Source: Candidatus Altiarchaeota archaeon
Lineage (GTDB): Archaea > Altiarchaeota > Altiarchaeia > IMC4 > QMZM01
Assembly (NCBI GenBank): GCA_016931955.1
Contig: JAFGDV010000006.1
Location: 1 to 30,241, forward strand
Reading direction: 5' to 3'
DNA: 30,241 nucleotides
In this document: one piece after another, positions 2,215-18,368 of the stretch
Layout of the letters: every line of letters starts with the position of its first letter
Position numbering within the stretch: the first letter of the stretch is position 1
The notes under the pieces: model-generated
What the model was told of the DNA's origin: nothing
What the model saw: only the letters and a program-made list of their open reading frames with translations
Database searches by the model: none
Translations under genes and position numbers: made by a program

Positions 2215-2906
2215 ATTATGGTGTGGAGGAATATTAGTTCTACCAGCGTTGACGCAACGACTATGAGGATAAAGCCAGCAAGCACGTATTCCACTCCCTT
2301 TCTCGCATCCCTCCTCGCCTCAAGGTCTTCGCTGGTGATCCACCTGAATCCATGCAGTATCAGCATTATTATGCCTGCGAACATTGCCCCGTAACGCAGT
2401 AAATCGATGACGTTGCAAAACTGCCTGTTTGACTCGCAGACGCCGTAACAGGTGTGATAACACGCCTCCTCCGTCTTACTGCCTGCAGCATATATGCTGC
2501 ATACATCGGTTGCAGTGCACTGCTCGCAGTTATCTGTTAGCAGCGTCTTCCGGCCGCAGGCTGCTGCACACTCAAGCATGCAATCAGAGGAATCCGGTTC
2601 ACTCACCAACTTGGCAACGGAACACCTCACAGACGGTGTGCTGCCGTCCTTGCACATGTAGCTGCCGAAAGTCGCATAGGTTGTGCACATAAAGGGCCCA
2701 AAAGTGCAGTAGGCCCCGCCTGTTGGTCCGGGATATATCTCGCATCCGACCGCACAGTATTCTAGTATGGTAGTATCTGTGTCATCGACGACACATGCAT
2801 TGCTGGGGCTGCCGAAACACGGATCGCGACATTTCGTAGCAGAGACTGCTGAGTTCATGGATATGAAGAGGATGAAAGCCGCTAATATCCATGATTTATC
2901 ATTCAT
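2208..2906 (-). CDS. Secreted Cys-rich domain fused to VirB2/TrbC-like pilin hairpin
   Basis: Signal ends SAVSA; Cys-rich; hairpin GFRWITSEDLEARRDARKGVEYVLAGFILIVVA. Stop overlaps the next gene's start region. Confidence 0.75.
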   Translation of the reverse strand: MNDKSWILAAFILFISMNSAVSATKCRDPCFGSPSNACVVDDTDTTILEYCAVGCEIYPGPTGGAYCTFGPFMCTTYATFGSYMCKDGSTPSVRCSVAKLVSEPDSSDCMLECAAACGRKTLLTDNCEQCTATDVCSIYAAGSKTEEACYHTCYGVCESNRQFCNVIDLLRYGAMFAGIIMLILHGFRWITSEDLEARRDARKGVEYVLAGFILIVVASTLVELIFLHTIIC

Positions 2907-2988: not shown

Positions 2989-5900
2989 ATGGTGAAAAAA
3001 TCCAGAGACCATAGGTTTATTCTCCTCATCTCTGTCATCCTCATACTGACAGTGCAAGCCAACTCCCAAAGCCCCCCCAGCTGTACTATGACATTGTCGG
3101 TAAGATTCGATCCTATTGATCCAGGCGAAGACAACGAGTTTAGTGTGCAATTAAATCCAGTCCCTGTATGCCGGGATAAGCCTGTGAGATTAGAGGTCAT
3201 CGATCCCAACGGGGTCAGACATCAATACTATGGAATCACCGACATTAGCGCCCGCATACCGCCGGCTGGTTACCTGAGTTACCTGAAGCAATTCGATAAC
3301 ATGCCTAACACGGATGTGAGCGGCAGATACTATGTGATCGCGACCCTATACACGGGTGACTGGGTTCAAGACGACTTCGCCGTTAACGTAATCTGCGATG
3401 AACAAGCGAAGGACGGTGGGGGCACATTGATAGCTGAACGCCAGATCACCATAGGCAGCATCCCAGAGACCGTGGCCTCAGATATCGTCGCATGCACCGA
3501 CCTGAATGCTAACTGTGGCTACCTTGACCTGGTCTTGGATAAGGACTGCGCTCAAACCGGCGGCAGCTTTCCAGGCGCAGATCTTAACGTAGGAACTACC
3601 GAGCCAAGCTCAACAGACCACATAACTATCTGCACTAAACCGCTCCCCTCCTCCGAGCTGGAGTACACCTCAATAGACGGCAACAAGTACACGCTCATCG
3701 GCATGGCTGCTGAAGACTCTGACTCGACCCATTACTGGATGGCTAAGACCGGAGACGATGAATGCATAATGGGGGACGTCACAAGATGCGAGTTGCTCAC
3801 TAAGAGGCTTTTCATAGACGAACCACTTTACAGGGACTACATAAGAGACACAGTAAACGGCTTGGCATATGTTAACCCCCCCTGTTCGGGCTTCTATGAG
3901 GCCGCAGTGGGCTGGCTGTATGACATCGACACCCCAAGGTACCACGACATCTTCGGGGATTTGACTGATTTCCTCTACTGCCATCAGTCCCCCTTGCCGT
4001 CATTTAAACTCATAAAAGAGTCGCAGTGGTGTCATCTGATAAACCTGGGATGGTATTCCGTCGTCAACCTGACCAACAAGGAGGGTGTCACAAACATCGT
4101 CAACGACAGCATAACAGCTGAGAACCGATGGAATAATCTCTCAGGCTACATCGTCTTAGGGCATGCATGCCCCATCTGGCGGGATGTTGATAATTTACCC
4201 GCAGGCCTCCAAACCTTTGACGCTACCGCTGGGGGTTACAATGTTCCATGCCAGCTTCCTGACAGCGAACCTTTTACGCCCCCGTGTTCGGCATCAATCC
4301 CCAACCAATGCATCTACGTGTGGACGTCCTCTTATGCGTGGGATGGATTGTTTGGGTACGAGAAAAGCTTTGATTACACGTTGACTAATGCGGCTGAGGT
4401 GGAGGTATTGATGGCTGACAGCAACACAGACACCCAGATCCCCGCCTTTGATGTGATAAAGGAGGAGGTGGAGTCTATAAGGTCGCGGGTGACGGTGACG
4501 CCTAATATGGTCGCATCAGACTGTGGCGCTGTAGCCCCCATAACTGATGTCTTTTATTATGATAATCCGCTCCTCCCAGGATACCGTTCCTGCGATGACC
4601 ACAAACTAGGTTACTATAGATTGTTCGACCAGGATACTGTGTGGACTAAGATCTTCGCCGTGACGCCGATGCTCGAAGACGAGCACTGGGCGTGGGACTG
4701 GGATTGGAGCAAGGCAAGCGGACCAGATGTTGACTCCACCATCTCAATATACATTGGAGGAGGCTGCAAGAGGACCAGCGCATTCTACTTCAACTATCCT
4801 GGAGCAAAATCTAAGTACTTCGACTCAGCCAGCGGCACCAATACGCCTATCGTAGACTACGTGGATGTCACAGTAGACGACGGAGTTAATCCACCAAAAA
4901 TCTACAGTCATGTACCTGGGAGGAATCTGCTGCCTTTCCCGCCTGCGGATGCTGTAGAAGATGAAATCACCGGGCTTCCCATACCGGCACGCACCCACCC
5001 ATATGAGGGCATAAGGTATTCCTTCTTCAAAATAGACCATGTTCTGCCGGAGGATGCCGCCTACCTCAAGATAGACGTGGAATACACGTGCGAGACTAAA
5101 CTGGAGCGGACTCAATCACCAGTCTGCGGAGGAGGCACTGAGACAATAGAGGACGAAAGCATCGTCTCAGACAGCTACACCATAAAGTTCCTCGACCACG
5201 ATAATCCAAGAGAGAACTGCAGATGGAACAATCCCCTGGAGTGGATGGTGATTGAAGGTACTTGGCAGGGAAGTTTAACACCTGAGCATCCCGGGAGGTT
5301 CTGGGACGCCGACCTCGAGAAGAACATATTCCACCTAGAGGAGGATTCTACTCAAAACAGGCGGATGGTCTCAGTGGAAGAGGTAGAGGAAGAAGGCAAG
5401 ATAATAGAGGCGTTGGTCAGGGGCGAGGCTTCAGGTGATCAAGCTGATATGATGGTTGGATTCTACAGCGACGCTGCCGCAAATAACTATTGGTACGTTG
5501 ACATAGCCCGAGACGGCGGTGTAGGCGGTCAGAGCATAGTAATAGGCAGATATGAAGCGCCGTCGAGCTGGCAAGATAAGGAGTATGAAATTTCCCCTGT
5601 TCAGCCCCCGGATGAGGAGAAATGGTATTGGGTCAAGGTCTTCCTTGACGGGGATGACATATATGCGAAGGCTTGGCTCTGCGATCCCCCGGATCCCTGG
5701 GAGTGCAGTAAAGATGAGCCAGCAGGCTGGATGATACAATACGAGATGCAGGCAGGTGACACTAAGTATGGCCACCACTGGGTTATCGGTACCGACATAG
5801 GGGATACTGGCGATGAGGAATTCTGGTTTGACACCGAACCCATGTGCGGGATAGACATCAGCGGCTACTTTACGCCACATGATACACCCTTAGGTTACGC

Positions 5901-7164
5901 AGTCATCACCGACGGATTCATAGACATAAATATTAAGCCGGACACCCTCAGCGGATTCAACGTCAGCTTTAGAAACACAAGCATCATATACGAGCAGACC
6001 GCGTATCCCGCTAAACACATACTGTACAAGAAGGGAAAACCAGAAATACCTCCTGAATATCCTGACATCTTTGAGTTCTACTACGAAGACAAATACGGCT
6101 ATGAGTCGGAAATATATGGTTTCAATGAATTATGCAATCTGCCTCCCTGCCCAGCGAATTGCCACTGTGAGGAGAACGACATATTCAAACCGGAATGCGA
6201 TAACGTCGACCGAACAAAGGGTTCATGGCATTACTACCCCGACGGCTGCATATGCGCCCCCAGCGAATGCTATCCTGACCCGTGCAGCTCCGACAGGACA
6301 TACCACGAATTTGAGGGCTTATACTATGACTTCGTTGACTTCAATGCAATGCGTCTTTCAAAGGAGGAGGAATACCTTCAGACGGTGATGGACGCCGACG
6401 TGGCGGATGGTGAGACCGCCTTTTGGATAGAGGGGAGAGATCTGAAGGCTGAACTGGATGTTGGAAAGATAAACTCCGCTGAGGGCAGATATCGGCTCTA
6501 TTTCTCTGGCACAAACGTCAAAGTAACGGACTTTAAAGACGACGCTCAGATCATAGTATCCACGCACTTCAGGAACTACACATACAAGCTCAAGGATGTT
6601 TTAAGGCCGAGGGGCAAGGCAGTCATCGCCTATACAGTGACTCCTCCTAAGGAGTTCATAAAAACAGGTGACATCGTCACCATAGATCTGGACCTAATAT
6701 GCGGCGCAACAACCATAAGCAACGCAGAAGTCGAAGTAATCATCCCAAACTATGAGGGCGAGCTTTTCGGCGTTAGATGGGAGAAGCCCAGGATCGAGTT
6801 AGAGGATATTGAGTTGGATTTCTGGGCTGGACCTGTTTTCATGCCCACCATTAAACCCGACTTCAGGGTTACAGGGGATAGATCCTATGTGACGACCGAC
6901 GGTACGGGACACGCAAGCTTCGGCCTTATGATGAAGCAGAAGGCTGCACATGTAATACTCTACTACGAAGGCGGTGATTTATGCAGTGAAGCCGAGGCCA
7001 GCTTCATCTTAGGGAGAGAGGACTTGTCATCCATAATAACGAGTGTTGACTTCATCCTATTGCTGATCATATTCATCCTCCTCATATTCTCGTACAGGTG
7101 GTTTAAGAGGGGCAGACTGGACTTCTATGAGATGTGGCAGGAGTTCAGAGGGGAGAAGGACTAG
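2989..7164 (+). CDS. Large exported, C-terminally membrane-anchored surface protein (1391 aa)
   Basis: Signal peptide (FILLISVILILTVQA); acidic, Cys/aromatic-rich beta-type sequence; possible ConA-like/lectin sandwich at about 5240-5840; C-terminal TM FILLLIIFILLIFSY followed by basic RWFKRGR. Confidence 0.75.
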   Translation: MVKKSRDHRFILLISVILILTVQANSQSPPSCTMTLSVRFDPIDPGEDNEFSVQLNPVPVCRDKPVRLEVIDPNGVRHQYYGITDISARIPPAGYLSYLKQFDNMPNTDVSGRYYVIATLYTGDWVQDDFAVNVICDEQAKDGGGTLIAERQITIGSIPETVASDIVACTDLNANCGYLDLVLDKDCAQTGGSFPGADLNVGTTEPSSTDHITICTKPLPSSELEYTSIDGNKYTLIGMAAEDSDSTHYWMAKTGDDECIMGDVTRCELLTKRLFIDEPLYRDYIRDTVNGLAYVNPPCSGFYEAAVGWLYDIDTPRYHDIFGDLTDFLYCHQSPLPSFKLIKESQWCHLINLGWYSVVNLTNKEGVTNIVNDSITAENRWNNLSGYIVLGHACPIWRDVDNLPAGLQTFDATAGGYNVPCQLPDSEPFTPPCSASIPNQCIYVWTSSYAWDGLFGYEKSFDYTLTNAAEVEVLMADSNTDTQIPAFDVIKEEVESIRSRVTVTPNMVASDCGAVAPITDVFYYDNPLLPGYRSCDDHKLGYYRLFDQDTVWTKIFAVTPMLEDEHWAWDWDWSKASGPDVDSTISIYIGGGCKRTSAFYFNYPGAKSKYFDSASGTNTPIVDYVDVTVDDGVNPPKIYSHVPGRNLLPFPPADAVEDEITGLPIPARTHPYEGIRYSFFKIDHVLPEDAAYLKIDVEYTCETKLERTQSPVCGGGTETIEDESIVSDSYTIKFLDHDNPRENCRWNNPLEWMVIEGTWQGSLTPEHPGRFWDADLEKNIFHLEEDSTQNRRMVSVEEVEEEGKIIEALVRGEASGDQADMMVGFYSDAAANNYWYVDIARDGGVGGQSIVIGRYEAPSSWQDKEYEISPVQPPDEEKWYWVKVFLDGDDIYAKAWLCDPPDPWECSKDEPAGWMIQYEMQAGDTKYGHHWVIGTDIGDTGDEEFWFDTEPMCGIDISGYFTPHDTPLGYAVITDGFIDINIKPDTLSGFNVSFRNTSIIYEQTAYPAKHILYKKGKPEIPPEYPDIFEFYYEDKYGYESEIYGFNELCNLPPCPANCHCEENDIFKPECDNVDRTKGSWHYYPDGCICAPSECYPDPCSSDRTYHEFEGLYYDFVDFNAMRLSKEEEYLQTVMDADVADGETAFWIEGRDLKAELDVGKINSAEGRYRLYFSGTNVKVTDFKDDAQIIVSTHFRNYTYKLKDVLRPRGKAVIAYTVTPPKEFIKTGDIVTIDLDLICGATTISNAEVEVIIPNYEGELFGVRWEKPRIELEDIELDFWAGPVFMPTIKPDFRVTGDRSYVTTDGTGHASFGLMMKQKAAHVILYYEGGDLCSEAEASFILGREDLSSIITSVDFILLLIIFILLIFSYRWFKRGRLDFYEMWQEFRGEKD

Positions 7165-8189
7165 ATCTTAAGTAGAATCCTTATGAACGTGATTAAATCG
7201 CCTTGGCAGAGATAGGTCAACAGAACCCCGAAGAAGAGGAATGGGGCGAACGGCAGCGTCTGCTGTATTCTCACGTGATCGGATTCTAGTTTTTTTTCTT
7301 TGTATAGTCTATTGATTAGATCGATTTCTTTTTGCGTTACACCCCTCCCAAGATTTATGATAACCTTATTTTCTGACTTTATGTCTTCTGCCAACATCAT
7401 GCAGGGCTTCAGCTCATCTATTCGTATGGATGTCGTCGTTTTGATCAATCTGCTTAGGCTTATGAGAAACATAACGACCATGAAAACAAAAATCAGGGAG
7501 GCAAAGAACCTCAGAAAATCCATGGTGAGAACCGTATCATAGTCAAATAAAAGCCTCAGCACAGAAAACAGTATGGATGCCTGCGTCAAGGTGATGAATT
7601 TTGTCTTCCTGAATGCCTCAGGTATGGCCATGAACAGGAGCAGGTATGTTAAGAATGTTAGCTGCATTCCCATAAACGAGAACAGTCCGTCGAAGAACCA
7701 TAGGAATCCGAAAAGGAACAGTATCCTACCAGCTAACGTCTTCAGATCGAATACCTTCCTAGGCTGAATCTTTTCTTTGATGGAGAACGGGAGGGTTAGG
7801 AGTAATAAAAAGAAGAGTGGGATGAATGTGTTGCCGAGGATTGTGAATGATGGGAAGTATTCTACGTAGCCTAACCGGTATGTAGTTAATGGGATTAATG
7901 CCGCATATGCTGAGAATAGTTTCGCATCCCCTGCAGTCCACATTTTGAACGTCCACAATGAGTAACTGACTAGAAACGCTATAATCACGTTGATCAATAA
8001 CGCAGGGTAGTAGTCTTGGCTTAGACTATGGTTTTCGATGAAACCAGAGAACATCAGGGAATTCATAAGGACGGCGAAGATAAACGCTAAAAGGATGTAT
8101 TTGTTCCTTATCTTCCCGCAGCGGATGTCTTCGTAGGATGTTATAGAACCAAAGACCAAGATGAATGGAAAAAATATGTTTGAGACCAT
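7161..8189 (-). CDS. A24-family prepilin peptidase (FlaK/PibD/EppA-like aspartic membrane protease)
   Basis: First Asp motif TSYEDIRCGKIRN, second WTAGDAKLF, C-terminal LPFAPFLFFG. Multiple TM helices; the 342-aa length fits the longer EppA-like type. Confidence 0.85.
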   Translation of the reverse strand: MVSNIFFPFILVFGSITSYEDIRCGKIRNKYILLAFIFAVLMNSLMFSGFIENHSLSQDYYPALLINVIIAFLVSYSLWTFKMWTAGDAKLFSAYAALIPLTTYRLGYVEYFPSFTILGNTFIPLFFLLLLTLPFSIKEKIQPRKVFDLKTLAGRILFLFGFLWFFDGLFSFMGMQLTFLTYLLLFMAIPEAFRKTKFITLTQASILFSVLRLLFDYDTVLTMDFLRFFASLIFVFMVVMFLISLSRLIKTTTSIRIDELKPCMMLAEDIKSENKVIINLGRGVTQKEIDLINRLYKEKKLESDHVRIQQTLPFAPFLFFGVLLTYLCQGDLITFIRILLKI

Positions 8190-8253
8190 CTTTATAACTT
8201 ACTATTTAGAGGTAAAATCTTTTTTTGGATTGAAAACAATAGTTTAATACAGG

Positions 8254-8688
8254 ATGTCGAAGAAAAGGCTTAAATCTGCTGTAGACAATATGGAGGTTTT
8301 TGACGCTGAAAACTATCTCATCTTATCCGTCAACCCAAGGATCTATAGCCTTGATGTCGTCTATTATGCCGCCTACGTCTTATTGGATAGGGCGTATGTC
8401 ATACTTGGAGGAGACCCGAAGAAAAAGATCCTGGTAGAATTGAGACCGAAGGATAACACAGACCTGAAAAGCTTGGGCAGGGAATTCAACAACGAGTTGT
8501 TGAATTACGCAGTGTACCTGAAACAATCAGCGAAAAATCAAAAGCTGAAGGAGGCTATCCTACAGAGGGTTTTGATGACCAATCTCGCTCCTGTGGAAGG
8601 CTGTGAACCGAATGAACTACTAGGGGATCCTGGAGGAATCACCAAACCCTGGGGGAGAGAGCATGGCAGGAAAAAGAAAAAAGGTTAG
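8254..8688 (+). CDS. hxsD: His-Xaa-Ser system protein HxsD-like
   Basis: VNPRIYSLDVVYYAAYVLLDRAYVIL...GREFNNELLNY resembles HxsD; directly upstream of an HxsB-like rSAM. Confidence 0.75.
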   Translation: MSKKRLKSAVDNMEVFDAENYLILSVNPRIYSLDVVYYAAYVLLDRAYVILGGDPKKKILVELRPKDNTDLKSLGREFNNELLNYAVYLKQSAKNQKLKEAILQRVLMTNLAPVEGCEPNELLGDPGGITKPWGREHGRKKKKG

Positions 8689-8926
8689 TGTGGATGAGAG
8701 AAAAAATCGAGTAGTGGCTGTTTTCGATACCCGATTTTATACCCCCGAAAGCATAAAATCGTCTGCTGAAGACTTCGAGGACTGTTGTCGTCTTCAAATT
8801 AGGTCCTGGAAAGATGATATAACTGTGGTATTGTCTCCTAAGAGCAGAGACATCAACTTAGACTTCCTCGGATATGAGTTCTATAATTATGTCCTTGCCA
8901 GGATGAGATCAAAAATGCCTGGTTAA
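8663..8926 (+). CDS. Second, shorter HxsD-like protein
   Basis: FDTRFYTPESIKSSAEDF...GYEFYNYVL parallels the Y-S/T...G-x-EF-x-N pattern of the preceding gene and overlaps it. Confidence 0.6.
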   Translation: MAGKRKKVSVDERKNRVVAVFDTRFYTPESIKSSAEDFEDCCRLQIRSWKDDITVVLSPKSRDINLDFLGYEFYNYVLARMRSKMPG

Positions 8927-8932
8927 TTTAAG

Positions 8933-10357
8933 ATGACTTTCAGCTACTTGGACACAGAAAAGTGTGTTGACTACACAGAAAACCAATACTTCGTGGAGAG
9001 CTTAGGGCAAGACACTTTTTTGATAACTACGGAACATGGTGCCTGGGTTGTTTTAAATAGGGAGCAATACAAACTGCTTAGATTGAACCGATTACATGAG
9101 GATTCAGGCCTTTTCCAGGAATTAGAGAGAAAGGGGGTGATCGTCACCAAAAGGAATGTAGACAATATAATAAACCTTTACAGGCTAAGAAGAGACTTCC
9201 TCTTTATGGGAGTGAATCTGCACATAATAGCTGTGACGTCAAAATGCAATCATAGATGTATTTATTGTTTCACTGGGTCACGGAAAAACAGAGGGGATAT
9301 GGATGGAGACACTGCAAAGGATGTGGTGGATTTCATATTCCAGAGCCCAAACCCTGCAATAAATATAGAGATCTCGGGAGGTGAGCCGTTGATGAATTTC
9401 GACGTTGTTAGATTTATCATAGAATATTCTGAAAAATTGAATAAAAAGTGCGGAAAGAATCTGAGCTTCTCTGTCGCCACAAACCTGAGCCGGATGGATG
9501 AGGACATCTTAGAGTATTTGATGGATAAAAAAGTGTCTATATCCACTTCCTTGGATGGACCAAAGAGAGTGCATGACAAAAACAGGAAGTATCTAGGAGG
9601 TAGCAGTAGCTACGAAGAAACGGTTTATTGGATTGACGTCATCAAAAGGGATCACCAGTATCCTCTCATAGGCGCACTGCCTGTGATCACAAGATATTCA
9701 TTAGCCCATGGGGGGGAGATAGTCGACGAATACGTCAAACATGACCTTGGTTGTTTAAGGCTTAAATACATCTGTCCTACAGGTGACGCACAGAAGAGGT
9801 GGGACAGGATAGGATACACATCTGAGGAGTACCTTGTTCTATGGAAGAATGTTTTGGAGTACATCCTTGAGCTGAATTTTAGCGGCATAGAATTCAACGA
9901 AGGATTGACGACTCTTGCATTGAAAAAGATTTTATGGACGCGGGATCCGAACTATGTTGACCTGAGTATGCCCTGTGGTGCTGGAATAAGACAGATCGCA
10001 TACGACGAGGGGGGTAACATATACACCTGTGATGAAGCAAGACCTTATGACATATTTAGGCTGGGCAATGTGGGTAGAGACGGATACATGGAAACAACAA
10101 CTTCGAGGATCGTTGCCAGTATTGTCGGCATATCCTCTGGCTACCCCCTCATCTGTGATTTCTGTGTTTGGAAACCATACTGTGGAGTCTGCTGTGTCAT
10201 ATCATACGCGCAACAAGGGAATATAATACCAAAGCTGCCTCTTGATTTCAGATGCAGGATACATAAGGGGATATTCGAGTATGTATTCAAAAAGCTGCTT
10301 TCATCGCCTGAGTGGAGAAAGATTTTTATGAAGTGGGTTAATATACCAATGTTCTAG
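8933..10357 (+). CDS. hxsB: Radical SAM/SPASM peptide maturase, HxsB-like
   Basis: CNHRCIYC rSAM motif, GGEPL, SLDGP; SPASM region YVDLSMPCGAG...YTCDEAR...CDFCVWKPYCGVC...C; N-terminal LITTEHGAWVVL; hxsD context. Confidence 0.8.
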   Translation: MTFSYLDTEKCVDYTENQYFVESLGQDTFLITTEHGAWVVLNREQYKLLRLNRLHEDSGLFQELERKGVIVTKRNVDNIINLYRLRRDFLFMGVNLHIIAVTSKCNHRCIYCFTGSRKNRGDMDGDTAKDVVDFIFQSPNPAINIEISGGEPLMNFDVVRFIIEYSEKLNKKCGKNLSFSVATNLSRMDEDILEYLMDKKVSISTSLDGPKRVHDKNRKYLGGSSSYEETVYWIDVIKRDHQYPLIGALPVITRYSLAHGGEIVDEYVKHDLGCLRLKYICPTGDAQKRWDRIGYTSEEYLVLWKNVLEYILELNFSGIEFNEGLTTLALKKILWTRDPNYVDLSMPCGAGIRQIAYDEGGNIYTCDEARPYDIFRLGNVGRDGYMETTTSRIVASIVGISSGYPLICDFCVWKPYCGVCCVISYAQQGNIIPKLPLDFRCRIHKGIFEYVFKKLLSSPEWRKIFMKWVNIPMF

Positions 10358-10396
10358 ATTTACATATATGTTTTTATGTCAGTAACCCAATAACTT
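10358..10396 (+). promoter_or_regulatory. Probable dedicated TATA promoter for the precursor gene
   Basis: TTTACATATATGTTTTTATG lies about 20-38 nt upstream of ATG 10397. Confidence 0.4.
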
Positions 10397-10762
10397 ATGA
10401 GTATGAAAAAGAGACTTCCAAGGATAAGGAAGGAATTATGTTCGTTTCTGTCTGAAGAAGACGGCAGGATACCGAAGAAGTCGATGCTTGCAATCGGTTC
10501 TACTATGGGTGGCATAGCTTTGGCCGGATTATTCTCTGATGTGATACCGTCTGCTGAGGCAACATGCCCCTCAGAAACAGTATTCACTTGTTGGCATAAT
10601 AATACCATTAACGCAGCCTATGATTCAACAATGTGTGCAATAACAGCCACCCACAATCTCCACGCGAATTTCAGCGTGGGTCCTGGGGAACATGGAACCA
10701 GCGGTTGCCGGCACGACAACAGTTGCCCACCGCCAAATGATGGATTGGATCCCTGCCTATGA
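10397..10762 (+). CDS. Candidate RiPP precursor (HxsA-positional analogue) with H-x-N motifs and export signal
   Basis: 121 aa, immediately after hxsB. Basic leader, FLSEEDG, hydrophobic stretch, AEA, then a core with 5 His (HNN, HNL, HAN, HGT, HDN) and 6 Cys. Confidence 0.6.
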   Translation: MSMKKRLPRIRKELCSFLSEEDGRIPKKSMLAIGSTMGGIALAGLFSDVIPSAEATCPSETVFTCWHNNTINAAYDSTMCAITATHNLHANFSVGPGEHGTSGCRHDNSCPPPNDGLDPCL

Positions 10763-10767
10763 TTAAT

Positions 10768-10791
10768 CTAACGCTCACCAACGAGCGATAG
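10768..10791 (+). other. Stem-loop just after the precursor stop
   Basis: cta-a-cgctc accaac gagcg-a-tag: 5-bp GC-rich stem plus 3 bp across one mismatch; no adjacent U-tract. Confidence 0.35.
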
Positions 10792-10810
10792 CATCGTATT
10801 TCAGGATAAA

Positions 10811-11662
10811 ATGATTGGAATCATCCCCATTAGCAGATATATCTCAATCTGTTCATTTTTACTTTTTGCTGCCATGCCTTTGATGACTATGGTAACCGCC
10901 TCATCAGCGCAAGATAGGGGACCTGAGGGATATTGTCTGGCCGCCTTATCATACATCTCTGACACGGAACGATCGATGAAGCTGCCGTTCAAGGATTTTG
11001 AAGAATTCGCTAATAACAGCCTTAGAGTGGACGCTAAATACGATCCGTTGATGCTTATCAGATTTGTTCCGGATGATGGGAATGATCGCTTTTATAGCCT
11101 GATTATGTTCGATCTATACAAAGAAATGGATATTGCCTTCTATTACAGCGTGGATAACGAGACCCAGAAAAGCGATTTCATCGGTTGTTCCCTATCTTCC
11201 GATGAATACCCGATAAATCTCGGCTGGTCTGATATCGTGTTAGTTCATAATGAACAAAGAATTCAGAGGGTATTGGTGGACAATGTTACATTCTATCGTA
11301 TAGATGACATGGCCAACCTTTCAACACCGGATGGTTCTCTCAGATGGAACATACATAAAACGCTTCTGCTATACGGAGGGGACTCCTCTGTCATGGAGGG
11401 GTGGGGTGCGTTCAAGAACTGGATAGGTAAGAATTTCTATTTTGAAAGAGATGTGGGTATGTACATCTTGGAGGATAGGACTACTAGAATAGAGACTCCA
11501 GATATTTTTATGAAGCGACAAACAGAATTGAGAGAACGACAAACAGAATTGAGGGGACTTATTCATGCAACACAGGTAATTATTGGTTTTTTGGTCATTT
11601 TGTTGATCATTTATCTCATAGTAGAGAAGAGGAAAGAACTCGGTAGGTGGATGGAATCATGA
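10811..11662 (+). CDS. Exported protein with C-terminal membrane anchor, unknown function
   Basis: Hydrophobic N-terminus ending ASSA; C-terminal VIIGFLVILLIIYLIV followed by EKRK. Confidence 0.65.
   Translation: MIGIIPISRYISICSFLLFAAMPLMTMVTASSAQDRGPEGYCLAALSYISDTERSMKLPFKDFEEFANNSLRVDAKYDPLMLIRFVPDDGNDRFYSLIMFDLYKEMDIAFYYSVDNETQKSDFIGCSLSSDEYPINLGWSDIVLVHNEQRIQRVLVDNVTFYRIDDMANLSTPDGSLRWNIHKTLLLYGGDSSVMEGWGAFKNWIGKNFYFERDVGMYILEDRTTRIETPDIFMKRQTELRERQTELRGLIHATQVIIGFLVILLIIYLIVEKRKELGRWMES
11516..11553 (+). repeat. In-frame tandem duplication (21-bp period)
   Basis: cgacaaacagaattgag at 11516-11532 and 11537-11553, encoding RQTELRE-RQTELR. Confidence 0.85.
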
Positions 11663-12765
11663 TGGCGAGAAAAAAGGTCGTAATAGCACTTATAGTAATG
11701 GGTATCGCCTACGTTGGGGTGACTGGTATATTTGATCTGACACCCATTATAATGCCTGATGTCCGGCTCATAGACTATAATGTCACAGGGCCTGTTTTTT
11801 TGGGTGTTGAGCTTAATAGGGTAACGGATTACCACATCTACATGTATGACATATCGAATGGGAAAATTTCGACCCTCGTATCGAACAAGGAGGGCTTATT
11901 CAGCCCAGCGATAGACGGGGACAACGTCGCTTATATCAGCTACAGTGGCGGTAATCCTGACATCCACGTAATCAATATACCCACGAAGGAGATTAAACAT
12001 CTGACATCAGACCCATATCAACAGGATTACCCCCATATCCATGAAAACAGGGTCGTATGGGAGGATGAAAGAAGCAAATACGCTGAAGGAAGCAGGGTAA
12101 CAAACACTCTGGACGTGTATATGTATGACTTGAACACCGATGAAGAGAAACCGATCATAACAACACAGGGTAAAGAGAGGTTCCCTTCGATCTATGGAGA
12201 CATAGTGGTCTGTGAGGTCTACAGTGACCTTGCATGCGAAAAGATTTATTTCTATGACCTATCAACAGGAGAACTGACGGAGATAGCCTCAAATTCACTG
12301 GTAATGGGTCCACCACACGTATACAAGAACACCGTAGTGTGGGCTTCTTTGGTTGAGGGGGACGAAATCTTAACCTATGATATAACTACAGGTAAGACAC
12401 GACAGATCACAAGTTCGGCAGAGAATGAGATGGATACGGACATCTACGAGGACAAGGTGGTCTATGCTAAAGGATTTCTGGCCAGTGACTTAGATATATA
12501 TATCTACGACATAGAATCTGGTCTCGAGGACAGAATCACTAACACACCAAATAACTTGGAGAGGCTGCCCAGGGTCTATCAAGACAAAATTGTCTATATC
12601 AGATGGGTGGGGGATTATACATATGTCTACCTCTACGACCTGAAAACTGGGGAGGAGAGCATGATAGAATCTCCGTCGAAATTCAATTATTTGGTGGATA
12701 TCTGGGAAAACAGGATAGTTTGGATGGGCTTCGATGTTTCTGAAGAAAAAGAGGATTCACTGTGA
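11659..12765 (+). CDS. Membrane-tethered TolB-like/archaeal beta-propeller repeat protein
   Basis: N-terminal TM; repeated blades such as IYMYDISNG, PAIDGDNVAY, VYMYDLNTDEE, PSIYGDIVV, IYIYDIESG. Start moved to ATG 11659 (ATGA overlap with upstream stop, AGGTGG RBS). Confidence 0.75.
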   Translation: MMARKKVVIALIVMGIAYVGVTGIFDLTPIIMPDVRLIDYNVTGPVFLGVELNRVTDYHIYMYDISNGKISTLVSNKEGLFSPAIDGDNVAYISYSGGNPDIHVINIPTKEIKHLTSDPYQQDYPHIHENRVVWEDERSKYAEGSRVTNTLDVYMYDLNTDEEKPIITTQGKERFPSIYGDIVVCEVYSDLACEKIYFYDLSTGELTEIASNSLVMGPPHVYKNTVVWASLVEGDEILTYDITTGKTRQITSSAENEMDTDIYEDKVVYAKGFLASDLDIYIYDIESGLEDRITNTPNNLERLPRVYQDKIVYIRWVGDYTYVYLYDLKTGEESMIESPSKFNYLVDIWENRIVWMGFDVSEEKEDSL

Positions 12766-12791
12766 AATAGTTTTTCCCTTTTGTATAAAGG

Positions 12792-13682
12792 ATGAAAGAT
12801 AAAAAGGGGTTTTTTGATGAATTAAAAAGTCTGCGTTTAGGTTGTGATGCGATTAAGGATATTGTTCTAGTATATGATGGGGTTAAACCCTCGACAAGAT
12901 TAATGTTACCACAATACTCACTTAAATCACTTCAGGAGTTTTTGGTAAGATATGGGCTCTGCATTATAAGATCAGACTATAAAGTTGTAACGAAGAAGGA
13001 TAGAAGCAAGGGCGGTTGGGGAAATAAAATTCTGAGGATAGTCGACGCAAACTCCGATGAAGGAGAACCCTCTTATTATATCGCAAAATCAGATGAGATT
13101 GCAAAAGAGGCAAAGACTGCGGATTTTGTAGATCCCGACGAATTCGGTCAAACCTTGGGTTATCCTATATGCTGTCAGGAATTCTTCAAGAAGTATTTTC
13201 CGTTAGCAAACGAAAAACAGTGCGACTTCGTCCTCTATACATTAAAGGAAACAAAAGAAGACTACCCATATGACCTCTACAACAATAATGCTTCCAGGTA
13301 CTTTGGTTATTCTCTTTTAAGTCACTTTCCATGTTCCTTCAACTGCAAGGAGTCGTCGAAGCTTGCAAGGAGTTACTACAAAGTGTTCGAAAGATACTCA
13401 CCAAGTTGGGCGAATAACTTCATCTATTGTCAACAGTCAGCGATCATCTACACTGAATATGGTGGTATTTTTTTAATCAAAAATTTCGAGCTTAATGGGG
13501 ATATCCTACGGTATGGCAAATCAAGCCGATTGTATTCGACTATAACAAACAAGAACCTGGAATTGCTTAGTAGGGGAAACAATATATTGATCAAATCCAA
13601 GAACAACTTTTCAATCCGCCAGGGAGATAGGCTTCTAAAAACATTTAAGGGCGAGAATGTTGGGTTGCTTGTTTTTGGATAG
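12792..13682 (+). CDS. DUF483-like protein
   Basis: Motifs GVKP, FGQTLGYPICCQEFF and HFPCSFNCKES, as recalled for DUF483. Confidence 0.65.
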   Translation: MKDKKGFFDELKSLRLGCDAIKDIVLVYDGVKPSTRLMLPQYSLKSLQEFLVRYGLCIIRSDYKVVTKKDRSKGGWGNKILRIVDANSDEGEPSYYIAKSDEIAKEAKTADFVDPDEFGQTLGYPICCQEFFKKYFPLANEKQCDFVLYTLKETKEDYPYDLYNNNASRYFGYSLLSHFPCSFNCKESSKLARSYYKVFERYSPSWANNFIYCQQSAIIYTEYGGIFLIKNFELNGDILRYGKSSRLYSTITNKNLELLSRGNNILIKSKNNFSIRQGDRLLKTFKGENVGLLVFG

Positions 13683-13687
13683 GCTAC

Positions 13688-14956
13688 CTAGGTCGTTTTT
13701 TGGATACACAGATCCATCAGACAGAGTGTGTGATTGTCTCCGCATCTTATGCAGTATCTCTCCAAAACCAGAAAGGCCTTGAATTTTTTTAGGTCTATAT
13801 TGCTCAATAAATCCGCGTGAAGTTCAAGACGATTCTTTTTCCTGCAGAAGTATATCTTTTCGGGGGGAAGACCTTTCTTTTTGAGTATCCTTATCAACTC
13901 CTTGATCTTTTCGAGTGATTCTGTGACCACTATCTTTTTTATGCATCCGTTTTCTGTGACTTCTTCATGAGGCTTTCTTATGATTTCGGTCATATTTTTG
14001 ATGATCATAGCTCCTTGAACATGTTTTTTATAGTAACTTGGGCAAAAATTGATTGGTAACTCTATGTTCTTCTCTATTGTAGAATCTATTATCCTCAAAG
14101 CGGCCAGTTCGCTGCCATAAACTGGCATTATGTCGCTCATGAAATCATTTTCTGAGGAACCAATTAGAACCTTATAGCCTCTACTGCTCATGTCCCTCAG
14201 ATTATTCTTGCTAAACGTCAACTCGTGAAGATTCAGGTATTTTACACCGATTTTTTTCAACTCTGGCAGCAGTTTTTTTACTTTTTCTTCATCTTCGGGG
14301 ATTGCTGGTATCTCCACTGACACAACATCAACGCTTTTCACGGCATTTTTTAGCGGCTTTGTGTCGTATTCTCTTGCTGCTAGATCAAACCTGAGCTCAT
14401 CTAAGCCGCTATCCCTGAGTGCATTCAGCGTTTTTTTAGAGGCCAAGTCGCCGTTGGTGTAAAGCCAGATGTAGAAATCCTCAGACATATTATCCTTCAT
14501 TGCTGAGATGAAATCAAGAGCTCTGTCGAGTACACATAAGGGTTCACCGCCGGATATTCCAACACCCTCTATATTCCATCTCTTCAGGAAAGAGATCAGT
14601 TGACTTGGATTATGAAAGATGCTGTAATCGCATTTCACGTAATCTTTTTCTGGTTTGTTCCTTGGTTGGGGACAATAGAAGCAATGCCTTGTGCATTTTT
14701 CTGTTATGAAGATGCAAATCCATTTACCTCTTTTACATAATCTGCAGCCCTTGGATAGGTCGCCGTAGAATAGACTGTTTCCTTCTTGGGTTGCCTTGAG
14801 TCCTCTGGAGATCAAGCCATCTATAAGCTGCCGTCTTTCAGAGCGATACACATCGATCTCTGCCTTTGAGGGCCTCCCTATTCGTCGGTAAAGCTTCTTG
14901 TTCTCATTCTTTATCTCACGTATTTTTTCGGGATTTGGATAATACCATCCTTGCAT
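13688..14956 (-). CDS. Radical SAM protein, uncharacterised archaeal-type (COG2108/MJ1632-like)
   Basis: GDLSKGCRLCKRGKWICIFITEKCTRHCFYCP, ISGGEPL, WLYTNG, GLDELRFD, VEIPAIP, LNLHEL. No SPASM domain. Confidence 0.75.
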   Translation of the reverse strand: MQGWYYPNPEKIREIKNENKKLYRRIGRPSKAEIDVYRSERRQLIDGLISRGLKATQEGNSLFYGDLSKGCRLCKRGKWICIFITEKCTRHCFYCPQPRNKPEKDYVKCDYSIFHNPSQLISFLKRWNIEGVGISGGEPLCVLDRALDFISAMKDNMSEDFYIWLYTNGDLASKKTLNALRDSGLDELRFDLAAREYDTKPLKNAVKSVDVVSVEIPAIPEDEEKVKKLLPELKKIGVKYLNLHELTFSKNNLRDMSSRGYKVLIGSSENDFMSDIMPVYGSELAALRIIDSTIEKNIELPINFCPSYYKKHVQGAMIIKNMTEIIRKPHEEVTENGCIKKIVVTESLEKIKELIRILKKKGLPPEKIYFCRKKNRLELHADLLSNIDLKKFKAFLVLERYCIRCGDNHTLCLMDLCIQKTT

Positions 14957-15017
14957 TTTTAGATGTATTTAATAATTCAGCACTAATAAGTTAATAGTAT
15001 CCTAGAGGTGATTGATT

Positions 15018-16040
15018 ATGGTGTATGTCAAGAGATTGTTGATTTTATTATTGTTGTTCTCTCTTTTGATGCCTGCCTGCATCGACTCAGGTGGGAAATC
15101 CGATGAAGTTGTTGTCTATGTCGCACATGATCAGGATTATTCTGAGCCCATACTCAGGGCTTTTGAAGAGGAAACTGGCATCAGGGTGAAAACTCTCTAC
15201 GATACTGAAGCTACTAAGACCACGGGCCTGGTGAACAAGCTGATAGCGGAAAAGAACCGTCCTCAGGCTGACGTCTTCTGGAACAACGAAGTCAGCAGGA
15301 CTATTGTCTTGAAGAATAACGGTATCCTGGAAACCTATTGTTCGCCTAACGCAGCCGATGTGCCAGCTATATACAAGGACCCTGAATGTTACTGGACTGG
15401 TTTCGGAGCTAGGGCGCGGATCATACTCTACAACTTGGATCTTGTAAGCAGAGAGGATGCACCCGATTCCTTGATGGATTTAACAGATCCCAAATGGGAG
15501 GGCAAGACGTGTATTGCAAACCCTCTTTTCGGTTCTACTGCATCGCATGTGGCTTCTCTATTCGCCTACTGGGGTGACGACGAAGCCATCCAATACTTCA
15601 CTGGCCTTAAGGAGAATAACATCATGATTGTGGAAAGCAACGGCATGGTCAGGGATCTTGTTGTTTCCGGTGAATGCTACATCGGCTTGACTGACACTGA
15701 TGACGCAAACGATGCCTTGGTCGAGAATAAACCTGTTGCGATGGTGTTCCCAGATCAGGACGGCATGGGTACTCTGGTTTTCCCCAATTCAGTGATGTTG
15801 ATCAAGAATGGGCCGAATCCAGAGAACGGTAAAAAACTCGTCGATTACCTGTTGAGCAGGGATGTCGAGAGAGAGCTTGCTTATACGAAGGCGATGCAGA
15901 TACCCCTTAAACCTGGAGTGGAGCGTCCGGAGAATGTTCCTGACGTGGATGAATTGAAGAATATTCCTGTGACGCCGGAGGAGCTCTATAATAAACTTAA
16001 CGTCTCTCAGGTTTTTGTTCAGGAGCTTTTTATCAGATAA
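15018..16040 (+). CDS. ABC transporter substrate-binding protein, Fe3+ (AfuA/FutA)-like
   Basis: Lipoprotein-like signal (LLMPAC), FEEETGIRV, AEKNRPQADVFW, DLTDPKWEG, AMVFPDQ. GAGGTGA RBS at 15005-15011 supports ATG 15018. Confidence 0.8.
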   Translation: MVYVKRLLILLLLFSLLMPACIDSGGKSDEVVVYVAHDQDYSEPILRAFEEETGIRVKTLYDTEATKTTGLVNKLIAEKNRPQADVFWNNEVSRTIVLKNNGILETYCSPNAADVPAIYKDPECYWTGFGARARIILYNLDLVSREDAPDSLMDLTDPKWEGKTCIANPLFGSTASHVASLFAYWGDDEAIQYFTGLKENNIMIVESNGMVRDLVVSGECYIGLTDTDDANDALVENKPVAMVFPDQDGMGTLVFPNSVMLIKNGPNPENGKKLVDYLLSRDVERELAYTKAMQIPLKPGVERPENVPDVDELKNIPVTPEELYNKLNVSQVFVQELFIR

Positions 16041-16058
16041 TCCCAATTCTTATGGAAG

Positions 16059-17606
16059 ATGTCTTTGAGGTTTCATGCAGATTTAAGGCTATTATTAAAA
16101 ATCTTAACGCTTTTTCTATTCATCGTAGTTGCCATAGTTCCACTACTTTGCATCCTCTCATCGGATTTCTCATTGGAGCTTATTCCCACGTTTCTTGATG
16201 AGAGGTTGCTGTTTATCTTCCTCAGAACAATCCTCTTAGGTGTCAGTACAGTAGCTATGAGTCTTCTGATAGGAGTACCACTCGCATTTCTCTTGGAGTA
16301 TACAGTGCTACCATTCAGATCCTTCCTGGAAAAGGTCTACATACTGCCTCTATTGATACCCCCGTATATAAGCGCGATAGCTTGGTTGGAATTCCTGGGA
16401 AAGAAGGGGGATATCACGAATCTGAATCTTCCATTGGACATATACAATCTACCCTCAGCCATAGTTATTTTATCTCTTTCATTCTTTCCGATCGTGACTT
16501 TGTTGACGTCATTCGCACTCAAGAACATTGATTCCAGACTGGAGGATGCTGCAAGGCTCTTGTATCCTCAAAAGGAGGTCATAAGGAGGATAACCCTTCC
16601 ATTGATTATGCCTCACATCATCATCAGCTCAGTCTTCGTTTTCGTTTTTTCCATCTCCGAGCTCGGCGTTCCCGCATTATTGATGGTTAATGTTTTCACC
16701 CCCGAGATATTCGCACAGTTCAGCGCCTTTTTTGATACCAGCAAGGCTGTTACACTCTCCCTGCCTCTCATCATCTTGATATTCATTATCATCCTACTGA
16801 ACAGATCATTCCTTGGAGGGAAGTCCTTCATAACCATCTCCTCCTTTTCTAAGAGAAAGAAATCGATTGAATTATCAAGGACCCAGAGTTTGGTTGCTTT
16901 GTCCTTCGCATCTCTCATCCTGGTACTATCCGTTGGGATACCGATCTCGGTTCTACTTATAGAATCCAGATTGCAGTTCTCAATAGCTCTCTCTGAAGCC
17001 TACACACCTCTCCTAAACACCATAAAAATGGCTTCGATGGGCGCTACCTTGATGGTCGCCATAGGCTTCTTTCTCGCGTATTTTTACAGAAGCCGATTTG
17101 ATCCAATAATCCTATTCCCCATAGCAATCCCGAGCATGATGGCGGGCATCGGGCTCATCAAATTCTTCAACATCGAATTTCTTTCTTTTATCTACAACAG
17201 CTTTCTCATAGTCATAGTAGGGTACGCAACAAGATTCCTCCCATTCGTCACGAAAACACTCCATCCCTTCTTTGAGCAGATACATCCCTCGATCGAGGAA
17301 TCGGCGCTCCTATCAGGCGCCTCCTTCTGGAGGATTCTCCATCGGATCCTGTTCCCTTTGATGAAGCCTGGAATCATTTCGGCGTGGATTGTCGGCTTTA
17401 TACTGTCGGTACATGAACTTTCTACGACGATACTGGTTTCCCCTGCAGGGCTCCAGACCCTGCCAATCAGGATATACTCTCTGATGCACTATGGAGCTCC
17501 CGAGATGGTCTCATCCCTCTCATTGATATTGATTGCTGTGATAATTGCCCCCGTGATACTATTCCTCCTAATCAAGAAGTCATTATTCAGGGCGGTGACG
17601 GCATGA
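16059..17606 (+). CDS. ABC transporter permease (FbpB/ThiP-type, duplicated)
   Basis: Many TM helices with two EAA-type loops: LEDAARLL...RITLPLI and IEESALLSGA...RILFPLMKPG. Confidence 0.85.
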   Translation: MSLRFHADLRLLLKILTLFLFIVVAIVPLLCILSSDFSLELIPTFLDERLLFIFLRTILLGVSTVAMSLLIGVPLAFLLEYTVLPFRSFLEKVYILPLLIPPYISAIAWLEFLGKKGDITNLNLPLDIYNLPSAIVILSLSFFPIVTLLTSFALKNIDSRLEDAARLLYPQKEVIRRITLPLIMPHIIISSVFVFVFSISELGVPALLMVNVFTPEIFAQFSAFFDTSKAVTLSLPLIILIFIIILLNRSFLGGKSFITISSFSKRKKSIELSRTQSLVALSFASLILVLSVGIPISVLLIESRLQFSIALSEAYTPLLNTIKMASMGATLMVAIGFFLAYFYRSRFDPIILFPIAIPSMMAGIGLIKFFNIEFLSFIYNSFLIVIVGYATRFLPFVTKTLHPFFEQIHPSIEESALLSGASFWRILHRILFPLMKPGIISAWIVGFILSVHELSTTILVSPAGLQTLPIRIYSLMHYGAPEMVSSLSLILIAVIIAPVILFLLIKKSLFRAVTA

Positions 17607-18316
17607 CTTTCCTCAGAATAAGAAACGTTGAGAAATCATTCGGCAGAAAGAAGGCGATATCAGAGCTCTCATTGGAGGTAGAGCAAAATGAGATCATCGG
17701 AGTACTCGGACCCTCAGGCTGCGGGAAGACGACTCTTCTCAGGATTATCGCAGGCCTTGAAGTACCCGACAGAGGAGAGATAATCATCAACGGAAGCACA
17801 GTTTACTCCAAGCGTACATTCATAACGCCTGAGAAGAGGAATGTTGGCATGGTGTTCCAGGATTTTGCGTTGTGGCCGCATATGACTGTGAGAGAGCATA
17901 TAGGCTTTGTGTTAGAGTCGCGAAAGATTAAAAAAGATGAAAAAATCAGTGAAATACTGAGGTTATTGTATCTTGGATCACTGGCTGGGTCTTATCCTGA
18001 ACAGCTTTCTGGTGGAGAGAAGCAGAGGGTCGCGATAGCGAGGGTTCTGGCTCAGGAGCCCAGGATCCTGTTATTGGATGAACCTGCGTCTAACCTTGAC
18101 CAGATCCTCAAGAGAGAGTTCAAGGATGAGCTGCTTAGGCTGAGGGAAGTTCTTAAGGTGACAGTAGTCTATGTCACCCACAACTACCTTGAACTGCTTG
18201 GTCTAGCTGACAAGATCACTGTAATGAAAGACGGCAGAATAATCCAAGAGGGTAAAACAGACGAAGTCTACGAAAATCCTGGAAATGGGTTCGTAGCCAG
18301 CCTCTTCAATAAATAG
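17603..18316 (+). CDS. ABC transporter ATP-binding protein
   Basis: Walker A GPSGCGKT, Q-loop VFQDFAL, LSGGE signature, Walker B LLLDEP, H-loop VTH. Confidence 0.95.
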   Translation: MTFLRIRNVEKSFGRKKAISELSLEVEQNEIIGVLGPSGCGKTTLLRIIAGLEVPDRGEIIINGSTVYSKRTFITPEKRNVGMVFQDFALWPHMTVREHIGFVLESRKIKKDEKISEILRLLYLGSLAGSYPEQLSGGEKQRVAIARVLAQEPRILLLDEPASNLDQILKREFKDELLRLREVLKVTVVYVTHNYLELLGLADKITVMKDGRIIQEGKTDEVYENPGNGFVASLFNK

Positions 18317-18321
18317 TATCC

Positions 18322-18342
18322 AAAAAAAAACGAACTTATTAA
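18322..18342 (+). promoter_or_regulatory. Putative BRE/TATA promoter
   Basis: A-run and CGAAC, then TTATTAA at 18336-18342, about 27 nt upstream of ATG 18369 (consistent with a leaderless mRNA). Confidence 0.45.
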
Positions 18343-18368
18343 CCAAAAAGATTTAATCTATAAAGAAT

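Follow-up and report, generated by a model that had tools for sequence, protein, structure and literature searches.

A probable HxsC-less member of an A24 peptidase-linked Hxs variant in an Altiarchaeales-type archaeon

The closest described counterpart of the locus considered here is the HXS system of Escherichia coli, HxsD-B-C-A, which blocks phage DNA entry (Li et al., Nat Commun 2026; PMC13128918). In the portions of that article that were available, HxsA is cut N-terminally by a non-canonical route requiring HxsB, HxsC and HxsD and gains 8 Da in its last His-x-Ser repeat, HxsD is pulled down with HxsC and not with HxsB, and 99.7% of HxsA-defined systems are placed in Pseudomonadota; the protease that cuts HxsA and the organisation of the maturation complex are left there as gaps. 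The family models TIGR03976-03979 are attributed to Haft and Basu in the accessible part of a second paper (PMC9062424), and the NCBIfam models HxsA3, HxsA4, HxsC4 and HxsD_rel mean that variant components are known to curators at the family level. Our searches of the literature returned no paper linking Hxs to an A24 peptidase or to archaea; supplements, which might list variant architectures, lay outside their scope. Here we describe an Hxs-type cassette in a 30,241-nt stretch (the window) of contig JAFGDV010000006.1, from a Candidatus Altiarchaeota genome (our G000) of 1.55 Mb in 46 contigs that is 92.4% complete. We consider it likely that the cassette is an HxsC-less member of an A24 peptidase-linked Hxs variant, belonging to an Altiarchaeales-type archaeon, and that it would yield a peptide modified by HxsB and delivered to the cell envelope.

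The cassette opens a run of nine open reading frames (ORFs), all intact, at 7161-14956. Four forward-strand genes make up an operon, hxsD1-hxsD2-hxsB-hxsA' (8254-10762), and a peptidase gene diverges from it 64 bp upstream. The HxsB radical S-adenosylmethionine (SAM)/SPASM maturase (474 aa; 8933-10357) scores 394.9 bits against TIGR03978 (cut-off 370) over positions 6-466 of the 466 in the model, and its gene is the sole one of its kind in the genome. HxsD-family protein 1 (HxsD1, 144 aa; 8254-8688) falls slightly below the cut-off of TIGR03976 (47.3 against 50 bits), HxsD-family protein 2, of the HxsD_rel type (HxsD2, 87 aa; 8663-8926), passes that of NF038315 (47.9 against 41 bits), and their genes overlap by 26 nt. 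The A24 peptidase, a FlaK-like GxGD protein of 342 aa on the reverse strand (7161-8189), scores 32.7 bits against PF01478 (34 in the genome search; cut-off 26.5), and the intergenic region between its start codon and that of hxsD1 (8190-8253) reads as AT-rich. The last gene of the operon (10397-10762) encodes 121 aa whose leader and overall design are those of a bona fide HxsA3, and which we therefore predict from its sequence to be an HxsA-type (HxsA3-like) precursor; it matches NF038309 at 27 bits over residues 7-47, below the cut-off of 65. An earlier note on this DNA had named the HxsB-like gene, the two HxsD-like genes and the head-to-head A24 peptidase with its 64-bp gap, all of which are borne out by these profiles. 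It had also proposed a distinct pathway to a radical SAM-modified, exported or membrane-displayed peptide, a proposal that stands as regards an HxsC-less Hxs-type pathway; the precursor at 10397-10762 had escaped recognition.

Like the E. coli system, as far as the available portions of its description go (Li et al., 2026), the cassette has a bona fide HxsB, small HxsD proteins with an L-L-N-Y-type motif and, beside the enzymes, a small precursor that has an export-type segment at its N-terminus and is rich in His towards its C-terminus, and N-terminal processing would be expected before or during export. It differs from that system in several features: there is no HxsC; two HxsD paralogues stand in place of one; a dedicated A24 GxGD peptidase is present; the precursor has neither a peptidoglycan-binding domain nor a His-x-Ser repeat, carrying instead H-x-N/T/L motifs and six cysteines; and the order is D-D-B-A with a divergent peptidase, in an archaeal host. 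What is distinctive here is the documented loss of HxsC, the repeat-less Cys/His-x-Asn precursor, the duplicated HxsD and the dedicated GxGD peptidase.

This arrangement is not due to chance, as it recurs in relatives and in metagenomes. We annotated 87 loci with profiles made from archaeal genes, namely the window, six genome loci and 80 metagenome loci (in our labels, L027 is contig C1 of genome G025, L028 is contig C183 of G006, L025 belongs to G007 and L045 is a metagenome locus). In the window, G014, G042 and L045 the A24 gene adjoins those for HxsD and HxsB, and in G006 and G007 it is no more than 6 kb away from them; it is divergent in the window and L045 and co-directional in G014 and G042, and the preservation of adjacency despite changed orientation argues for a functional tie between the peptidase and Hxs. 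Nine of the 11 metagenome loci whose HxsB is most like that of the window have an A24 gene, and the two misses have at most 2.5 kb of upstream sequence. On a tree of 81 HxsB sequences (quick IQ-TREE, SH-aLRT support), clade I, which holds the window (support 97), has the order A24, D, D, B and an A24 gene in 14 of 20 rows; clade II (support 98) has the order D, D, A24, C, B, precursor and an A24 gene in 22 of 28; and the canonical bacterial clade III (support 99) has the order D, B, C and an A24 gene in none of 27. None of 500 label shuffles matched the clustering of A24 on this tree. Clades I and II have 12 misses between them, of which eleven have less than 2.6 kb upstream or sit on a contig beginning with hxsD1. 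Two HxsB clades out of three therefore have an A24 peptidase that accompanies HxsD and HxsB, a recurrence that the earlier note had named as a check of its proposal. The cassette belongs to a widespread Hxs variant with linked A24, which gut-metagenome and IMG/VR contigs carry too.

The usual substrates of A24 enzymes are pilins and archaellins, and it could be supposed that the copy in the window serves the surface proteins and pilins around it and stands beside the Hxs operon by chance. The window is indeed rich in surface proteins, five of the neighbours have a T4SS_pilin-type domain, and the A24 gene and that for an exported protein of 1391 aa overlap at their 3' ends. We nevertheless regard such a coincidence as very unlikely, since the linkage to HxsD and HxsB extends over three gene orders and unrelated backgrounds, gut-metagenome and IMG/VR contigs among them, and since the genome has two other A24 paralogues (G000:C22:12935-13318, 52.1 bits, and G000:C2:26947-27246, 39.3 bits), both scoring above the Hxs-linked copy against PF01478, that could attend to housekeeping substrates. 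The presence of these two paralogues also makes the Hxs-linked A24 an extra, dedicated copy.

The peptidase itself resembles the FlaK/PibD-type class III signal peptidases in its two aspartates, the second of them in a G-D motif, and in its fold. Residues D21, N29, D88, K90 and P100 are invariant in all 14 aligned Hxs-linked homologues and G87 is nearly so, with D88 in an A-G-D motif that is GxGD-like; by analogy with FlaK, we take D21 and D88 to be the catalytic residues. The protein is predicted to cross the membrane several times and to have a small beta domain on the cytoplasmic side at about residues 250-312, and the best solved match of its AlphaFold2 (AF2) model (predicted local distance difference test score, pLDDT, 79.4) is FlaK, 3s0x_A (Z 13.6, root-mean-square deviation 4.1 over 154 residues), followed by an entry at Z 6.9; FlaK is also the top Foldseek match, though at an E value of only 0.47. 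The differences from FlaK/PibD are the extra cytoplasmic beta domain and the status of a third paralogue dedicated to a radical SAM cassette. Class III signal peptides have a short basic leader, with a basic residue and Gly, Ala or Ser directly before a hydrophobic helix, and the substrate expected here begins with a charged leader, after which comes a hydrophobic segment. In contrast to FlaK/PibD substrates, however, its leader is about 29 residues long and, according to the complex model described below, may double as the enzyme-recognition sequence, and a cleavage motif of a basic residue plus Gly/Ala is not conserved directly before the hydrophobic segment: the residues there are K-K-S in the window and likewise in G025, and Q-A or E-S in other precursors, while the sole invariant glycine, G23, lies seven residues upstream of the segment.

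HxsB has the CxxxCxxC cysteines C105, C109 and C112 and seven C-terminal cysteines, all invariant in the seven sequences compared. Its second-best NCBIfam family is PapB (149.7 bits), and the solved structures closest to it in sequence are 5wgg (E 2.5e-41), which we take to be CteB, and an anaerobic sulfatase-maturating enzyme; closeness to 5wgg and to the PapB-type ranthipeptide maturases fits a peptide-modifying enzyme that acts on a Cys-containing core. The closest named relative, 72% identical, is the HxsB of Candidatus Altiarchaeales archaeon B52_G2 (in G025), and the HxsB of L045 is 62% identical to that of the window; within the 61 genomes of the class, which also make up the phylum set, five besides that of the window have HxsB. 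HxsD1 is conserved in an alignment of 11 homologues, and HxsD2 was aligned over 11 sequences; a sequence search of solved structures gave chance matches only for HxsD (E 0.17), which has no solved relative by this measure.

The precursor consists of a leader (residues 5-26), a moderately hydrophobic segment (about 30-48), an A-x-A-like motif and a 66-residue core with five His, six Cys and seven Asn, in which the His motifs are H-N-N, H-N-L, H-A-N, H-G-T and H-D-N. The hydrophobic segment reaches Kyte-Doolittle maxima of 1.64 over 15 residues and 1.47 over 19. In an alignment of nine sequences the leader, the hydrophobic segment and the His-rich tail are present in all and the V/A-x-A motif in many, P8, K12, F17, L18, G23 and H86 are invariant, and a core motif H-x-N-x-I...Y-D...H with five cysteines is common to the window and G025. 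A word-based homologue search with the 121 aa returned the self match only, the HxsA model TIGR03979 has no match anywhere in the genome, and family-profile searches found no other Hxs precursor elsewhere in it. The precursor of G014 gives a full-length HxsA3 match at 34.6 bits, and that of the gut-metagenome clade II locus L061 is a bona fide HxsA3 (114.2 bits, above 65) encoded beside a bona fide HxsC (279 bits, above the cut-off of 267.9).

L061 exemplifies the HxsA3-type variant (NF038309, NF038315, NF038332; clade II), which is alike in the design of leader plus hydrophobic segment, in its two HxsD-like genes and in having an A24 peptidase within the cassette. It differs from the window in the order D-D-A24-C-B-A, in the separate position of its HxsB on the tree and, at L061, the sole clade II locus scored on the curated NCBIfam models, in having HxsC and a long His-x-Ser array, neither of which is found in the window.

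The absence of a recognisable HxsC, another claim of the earlier note, extends to the whole 92.4%-complete genome, in which nothing scores above the TIGR03977 cut-off; the best match, at 45.5 bits, covers just the core of a 422-aa radical SAM protein. A profile built from seven archaeal HxsC-like proteins likewise gives no full-length match in the genome, the best (71.9 bits) being a partial one to an unrelated radical SAM protein of 535 aa; neither hxsC nor a true His-x-Ser precursor was found elsewhere in the genome. L045 and the window have the same gene order for about 19 kb. The collinear stretch takes in genes upstream of the 1391-aa protein, then A24, HxsD1, HxsD2, HxsB, the precursor, a 283-aa protein, a beta-propeller protein, a DUF483-like protein and an ABC importer, and after it in L045 a 316-aa HxsC-like gene (NF038332 144.7 bits and TIGR03977 101.1 bits, each below cut-off) lies between the ABC ATPase gene and the homologue of a 1173-aa protein. 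The corresponding site in the window, occupied in collinear relatives, is an empty 52-bp spacer (18317-18368). In G025 (L027 8795-9052) a broken HxsC-like remnant persists at that site as two fragments, at profile positions 30-80 (with a TAG) and 276-312. Because the collinear L045 keeps an HxsC-like gene and G025 holds a broken remnant, the absence of HxsC is a recent secondary loss and not an ancestral design. Among the other relatives, G006 and G007 have HxsC-like genes beside or near HxsB (TIGR03977 118.5 and 96.6 bits), G014 has one on a different contig (160 bits with the archaeal HxsC-like profile), and G042 has no convincing one, its best match being partial (63.6 bits). The precursor has changed as well, with no His-x-Ser motif in the window or G025 and one in L045, against 3-18 in most other precursors, and the HxsC-losing subclade has also lost the His-x-Ser repeat array. 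A strict coupling of the two losses is ruled out by L045, which combines an HxsC-like gene with just one His-x-Ser. Elsewhere, L028 (862-7202) has five HxsC-like radical SAM paralogues of 307-327 aa around two HxsB genes.

These losses, HxsC being gone in the window and broken in G025 and the His-x-Ser motifs being so depleted, could also be read as decay, the cassette being a non-functional remnant whose remaining genes are drifting. The E. coli HXS requires HxsC, according to the available text of Li et al. (2026), and the sister species G021 has no HxsB, in a genome that is just 73% complete. We think such a remnant improbable. The nine ORFs are intact, the catalytic residues of HxsB and A24 are conserved, the five core cysteines and the H-x-N...Y-D...H motif are kept between the window and G025, and G042, which has no convincing HxsC-like gene, still has A24, HxsD1, HxsD2, HxsB and a precursor. 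Furthermore, ratios of nonsynonymous to synonymous substitution (dN/dS) against G025 or L045 are 0.07-0.25 for A24, HxsD1, HxsD2, HxsB, the precursor, the 283-aa protein and the propeller, and such ratios hold between two lineages both without intact HxsC, although the values are rough because dS is saturated or undefined. Among listed sequencing runs there is no RNA run with this stretch; one DNA run contains it and may be its source, and two marsh runs contain small shares of it.

The reading of a working HxsC-less cassette gains from a four-chain model of HxsB, HxsD1, HxsD2 and the precursor, the last being the scored partner, made with its own alignments. Its ipSAE values were 0.67, 0.68 and 0.70 (median 0.68), and those of three controls, two with the partner swapped for an unrelated protein and one with HxsB swapped, were at most 0.01; the mark used for this score is reached by 58 of 80 solved complexes and by 2 of 110 mismatched pairs. 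Agreement between the runs extends to at least 54% of contacts, with a partner pLDDT of at least 38. The confident precursor contacts involve residues 5-8, 10-19 and 22-26, which are exactly the conserved leader, and they meet HxsD2 at 37-41 and 61-85, HxsD1 at 34-45 and 88-107, including the invariant Y37, A39 and Y88, and HxsB at 373-375, 392-400, 405 and 430-432. By eye, the HxsD1 stretches correspond to the LYW and LLNDYxLRE motifs named for E. coli HxsD in the accessible part of Li et al. (2026). Recall of a solved structure by the model is unlikely because HxsD has no solved relative by sequence. The model supports leader binding by HxsD1, HxsD2 and HxsB, so that, in contrast to the radical SAM/SPASM maturases nearest in sequence, leader binding would be shared with two separate HxsD proteins and would not fall to an in-chain recognition domain alone.

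From these parts we infer the following pathway. The leader would be bound in the cytoplasm by HxsD1 and HxsD2 acting jointly with the SPASM region of HxsB, and HxsB would then modify the His/Cys/Asn-rich core. The hydrophobic segment would bring the precursor into the membrane with its N-terminus inside, and the A24 peptidase would cut off the leader at the cytoplasmic face, as for prepilins. The modified core, now outside the membrane, might stay anchored there or be released if the A-x-A-like site were cut as well, and the product would probably act in the cell envelope, possibly against the entry of virus genomes, if the E. coli HXS is a guide. A bolder version, which we offer as a tentative and somewhat doubtful proposal, is that the A24-linked cassettes reveal the missing Hxs protease and that the system has become, in this Altiarchaeales lineage, a one-enzyme pathway, in which HxsB guided by an HxsD1/HxsD2 heterodimer would place a new modification on the Cys/His-x-Asn core, GxGD trimming of the leader would follow, and the core displayed in the envelope would be an archaeal barrier to virus entry.

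Several points weigh against our reading of the cassette. Processing of HxsA in E. coli needs each of HxsB, HxsC and HxsD, as stated in the available part of Li et al. (2026), and a cassette without HxsC might for that reason be inactive. The precursor has no His-x-Ser motif and scores far under the HxsA3 cut-off, its hydrophobic segment is weak (1.47 over 19 residues), the canonical prepilin cleavage motif is not conserved across its family, and the A-x-A-like motif past the hydrophobic segment would also suit ordinary signal peptidase. As for the complex model, its score vanished once HxsB was replaced, the fold of the partner itself is uncertain, and a four-chain job with its own alignments differs from the setting in which the score was calibrated. 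Finally, L090, the twelfth A24 miss and a member of clade I, has 8.8 kb upstream and no A24 gene.

Beyond the operon, the most conspicuous gene is that for the 422-aa radical SAM protein on the reverse strand (13688-14956), which in Pfam matches only PF04055 and PF13353. The earlier note called it an unrelated radical SAM gene; its best NCBIfam match, HxsC at 45 bits against a cut-off of 267.9, covers the generic radical SAM core alone (residues 81-177). Its homologues belong to a large family labelled 'pyruvate formate-lyase activating enzyme-like uncharacterized protein', its only hit in a sequence search of solved structures was BtrN (E 3e-4), and PADLOC 2023, which has no Hxs model, gave generic viperin-type matches only, for both radical SAM proteins. 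It is nevertheless worth asking whether this protein has replaced HxsC functionally, by non-orthologous displacement. It lies within the cluster of an HxsC-less genome, at the precise junction where the ABC importer directly follows the DUF483-like gene in L045 and G025, and its best family match, weak as it is, is HxsC; moreover, for a 75% identical radical SAM protein (P0021) and a 69% identical DUF483-like protein (P0004) the longest contig is given with the same length, 70,244 bp, and the two may be neighbours in another relative. We find the replacement rather unlikely. The gene is missing from this slot in L045 and L027, nothing like it occurs at the 86 other loci or at eight viral-contig Hxs loci, it is convergent with the operon, and bacterial members of its family are named merely as pyruvate formate-lyase activase-like. 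Relatives with 30-37% identity occur in 25 of the 61 class genomes irrespective of HxsB, with no close orthologue at E <= 1e-50 in any of them, and two of the five other HxsB-bearing genomes have one, never adjoining HxsB (on another contig in G042, about 19 kb away in G007). A 472-aa paralogue in the window genome (32% identity; G000:C27:13379-14302) is probably an ordinary family copy of class genomes. The gene for the 422-aa protein was inserted here, and the protein is probably a bystander rather than a core part.

The genes between the operon and this bystander fare little better as general components. The exported 283-aa protein (10811-11662, forward strand) matches nothing in Pfam or NCBIfam and has hydrophobic stretches at 1-31 and 247-275, the latter a C-terminal membrane anchor, and the 372-aa beta-propeller protein (11647-12765, forward strand; TIGR04275 133.9 bits, cut-off 85) is anchored N-terminally through residues 3-35, in keeping with the exported proteins announced by the earlier note; among the 87 loci the pair is found only in the window, L027 and L045. 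The DUF483-like gene named there is present too, its product scoring a sub-cut-off 19.7 bits against PF04467 (cut-off 25): it is a predicted cytoplasmic protein of 296 aa (12792-13682, forward strand), PF04467 is carried by three of its 17 non-self homologues, all remote (P0017-P0019), and by 13-34% of members in the nearest Atlas clusters. The recurrent linkage to HxsB that the note proposed to look for, in A24, DUF483 and second radical SAM genes, holds for A24 in clades I and II, and not for DUF483, present near HxsB in five of the 86 other loci (L027, L028, L045, L049 and L090), or for the second radical SAM gene, present in none. L028, L045 and L049 have a strong HxsC-like gene, L090 a weak one (53.5 bits) and L027 the broken remnant. 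The DUF483-like protein has the motifs G-Y-P-x-C-C and H-F-P-C-x3-C, with G119, P125, C127, C128, N165 and C185 invariant and H178, C181 and S188 nearly so. Its AF2 model (pLDDT 94.3) found nothing in the PDB by Foldseek at E <= 0.001, and its best matches in the wide VIA comparison are middling and limited to residues 2-140 (2guk_B, Z 7.7; NleE, Z 5.5); a literature search on DUF483/PF04467 gave only papers on DUF483x-numbered families. Conservation within the system does not extend to the second radical SAM protein, the propeller or the 283-aa protein, and the 283-aa, propeller and DUF483-like proteins are lineage-specific or occasional accessories.

Downstream of the cluster lies the ABC importer (15012-18316), with genes for a substrate-binding protein, a permease and an ATPase, and this brings to mind a product that is not an antiviral effector at all and is instead a metal-binding peptide working with the importer. 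With five His and six Cys in 66 residues the core could bind metal, and such an importer comes after the cluster not just in the window but in G025 and L045 as well; in L045 it stands between the DUF483-like and HxsC-like genes. In L028 of G006 the HxsC-like array is followed by a DUF364/DUF4213 'putative heavy-metal chelation' protein, and then by a DUF483-like protein, an HxsD-like protein and an A24 peptidase. The importer linkage is, however, limited to the subclade, and its best families are aminoethylphosphonate-/thiamine-type binding proteins, all below cut-off, while the sole experimental Hxs function, in the accessible text of Li et al. (2026), is anti-phage defence. Two further observations weigh against it. 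A clade II cassette (L053 549-3194) has the gene for a type I restriction-modification methylase, hsdM (E 3.8e-52; 177.7 bits, below the cut-off of 242.75), at a distance of a few kb, and beside that gene are ORFs that look by eye like specificity subunits. Eight of 75 HxsB-related IMG/VR loci (L122-L129, predicted viral contigs) hold full Hxs cassettes, five of the A24-containing type D-A24-C-B-precursor and three canonical, which suggests carriage on prophages or other mobile elements. We therefore rate a metal-peptide role as not very probable and an antiviral one as possible, by homology alone.

The surroundings of the cassette have a character of their own. GC content is 0.39-0.44 over the Hxs cluster and the 422-aa radical SAM gene (7001-15000), against 0.47-0.57 in the flanks. 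The five flanking proteins with a T4SS_pilin domain (PF18895, TrbC/VirB2-like), at 134-436(+), 433-987(-), 1018-2214(-), 2208-2906(-) and 18369-21890(+), have it mostly at the C-terminus and resemble a cell-surface protein island; the last of them, the 1173-aa protein, combines it with a MopE-type metal-binding motif and a PKD domain. Two giant ORFs, of 1391 aa at 2989-7164(+) and 2015 aa at 23073-29120(+), match no Pfam family, and a 523-aa relative of the former, 27% identical, directly adjoins the HxsD-HxsB genes in G007 (L025 11670-13241).

That two large Hxs clades encode their own GxGD aspartyl peptidase makes this enzyme a candidate for the processing step of HxsA-type precursors, and the complex model provides a testable picture of how HxsD proteins and HxsB may together recognise a leader. 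The window is also a natural experiment, in that it presents what remains after the loss of HxsC and of the His-x-Ser array, and it could serve to separate the chemistry of HxsB from that of HxsC. If function is conserved, an envelope-level antiviral strategy would extend to archaea.

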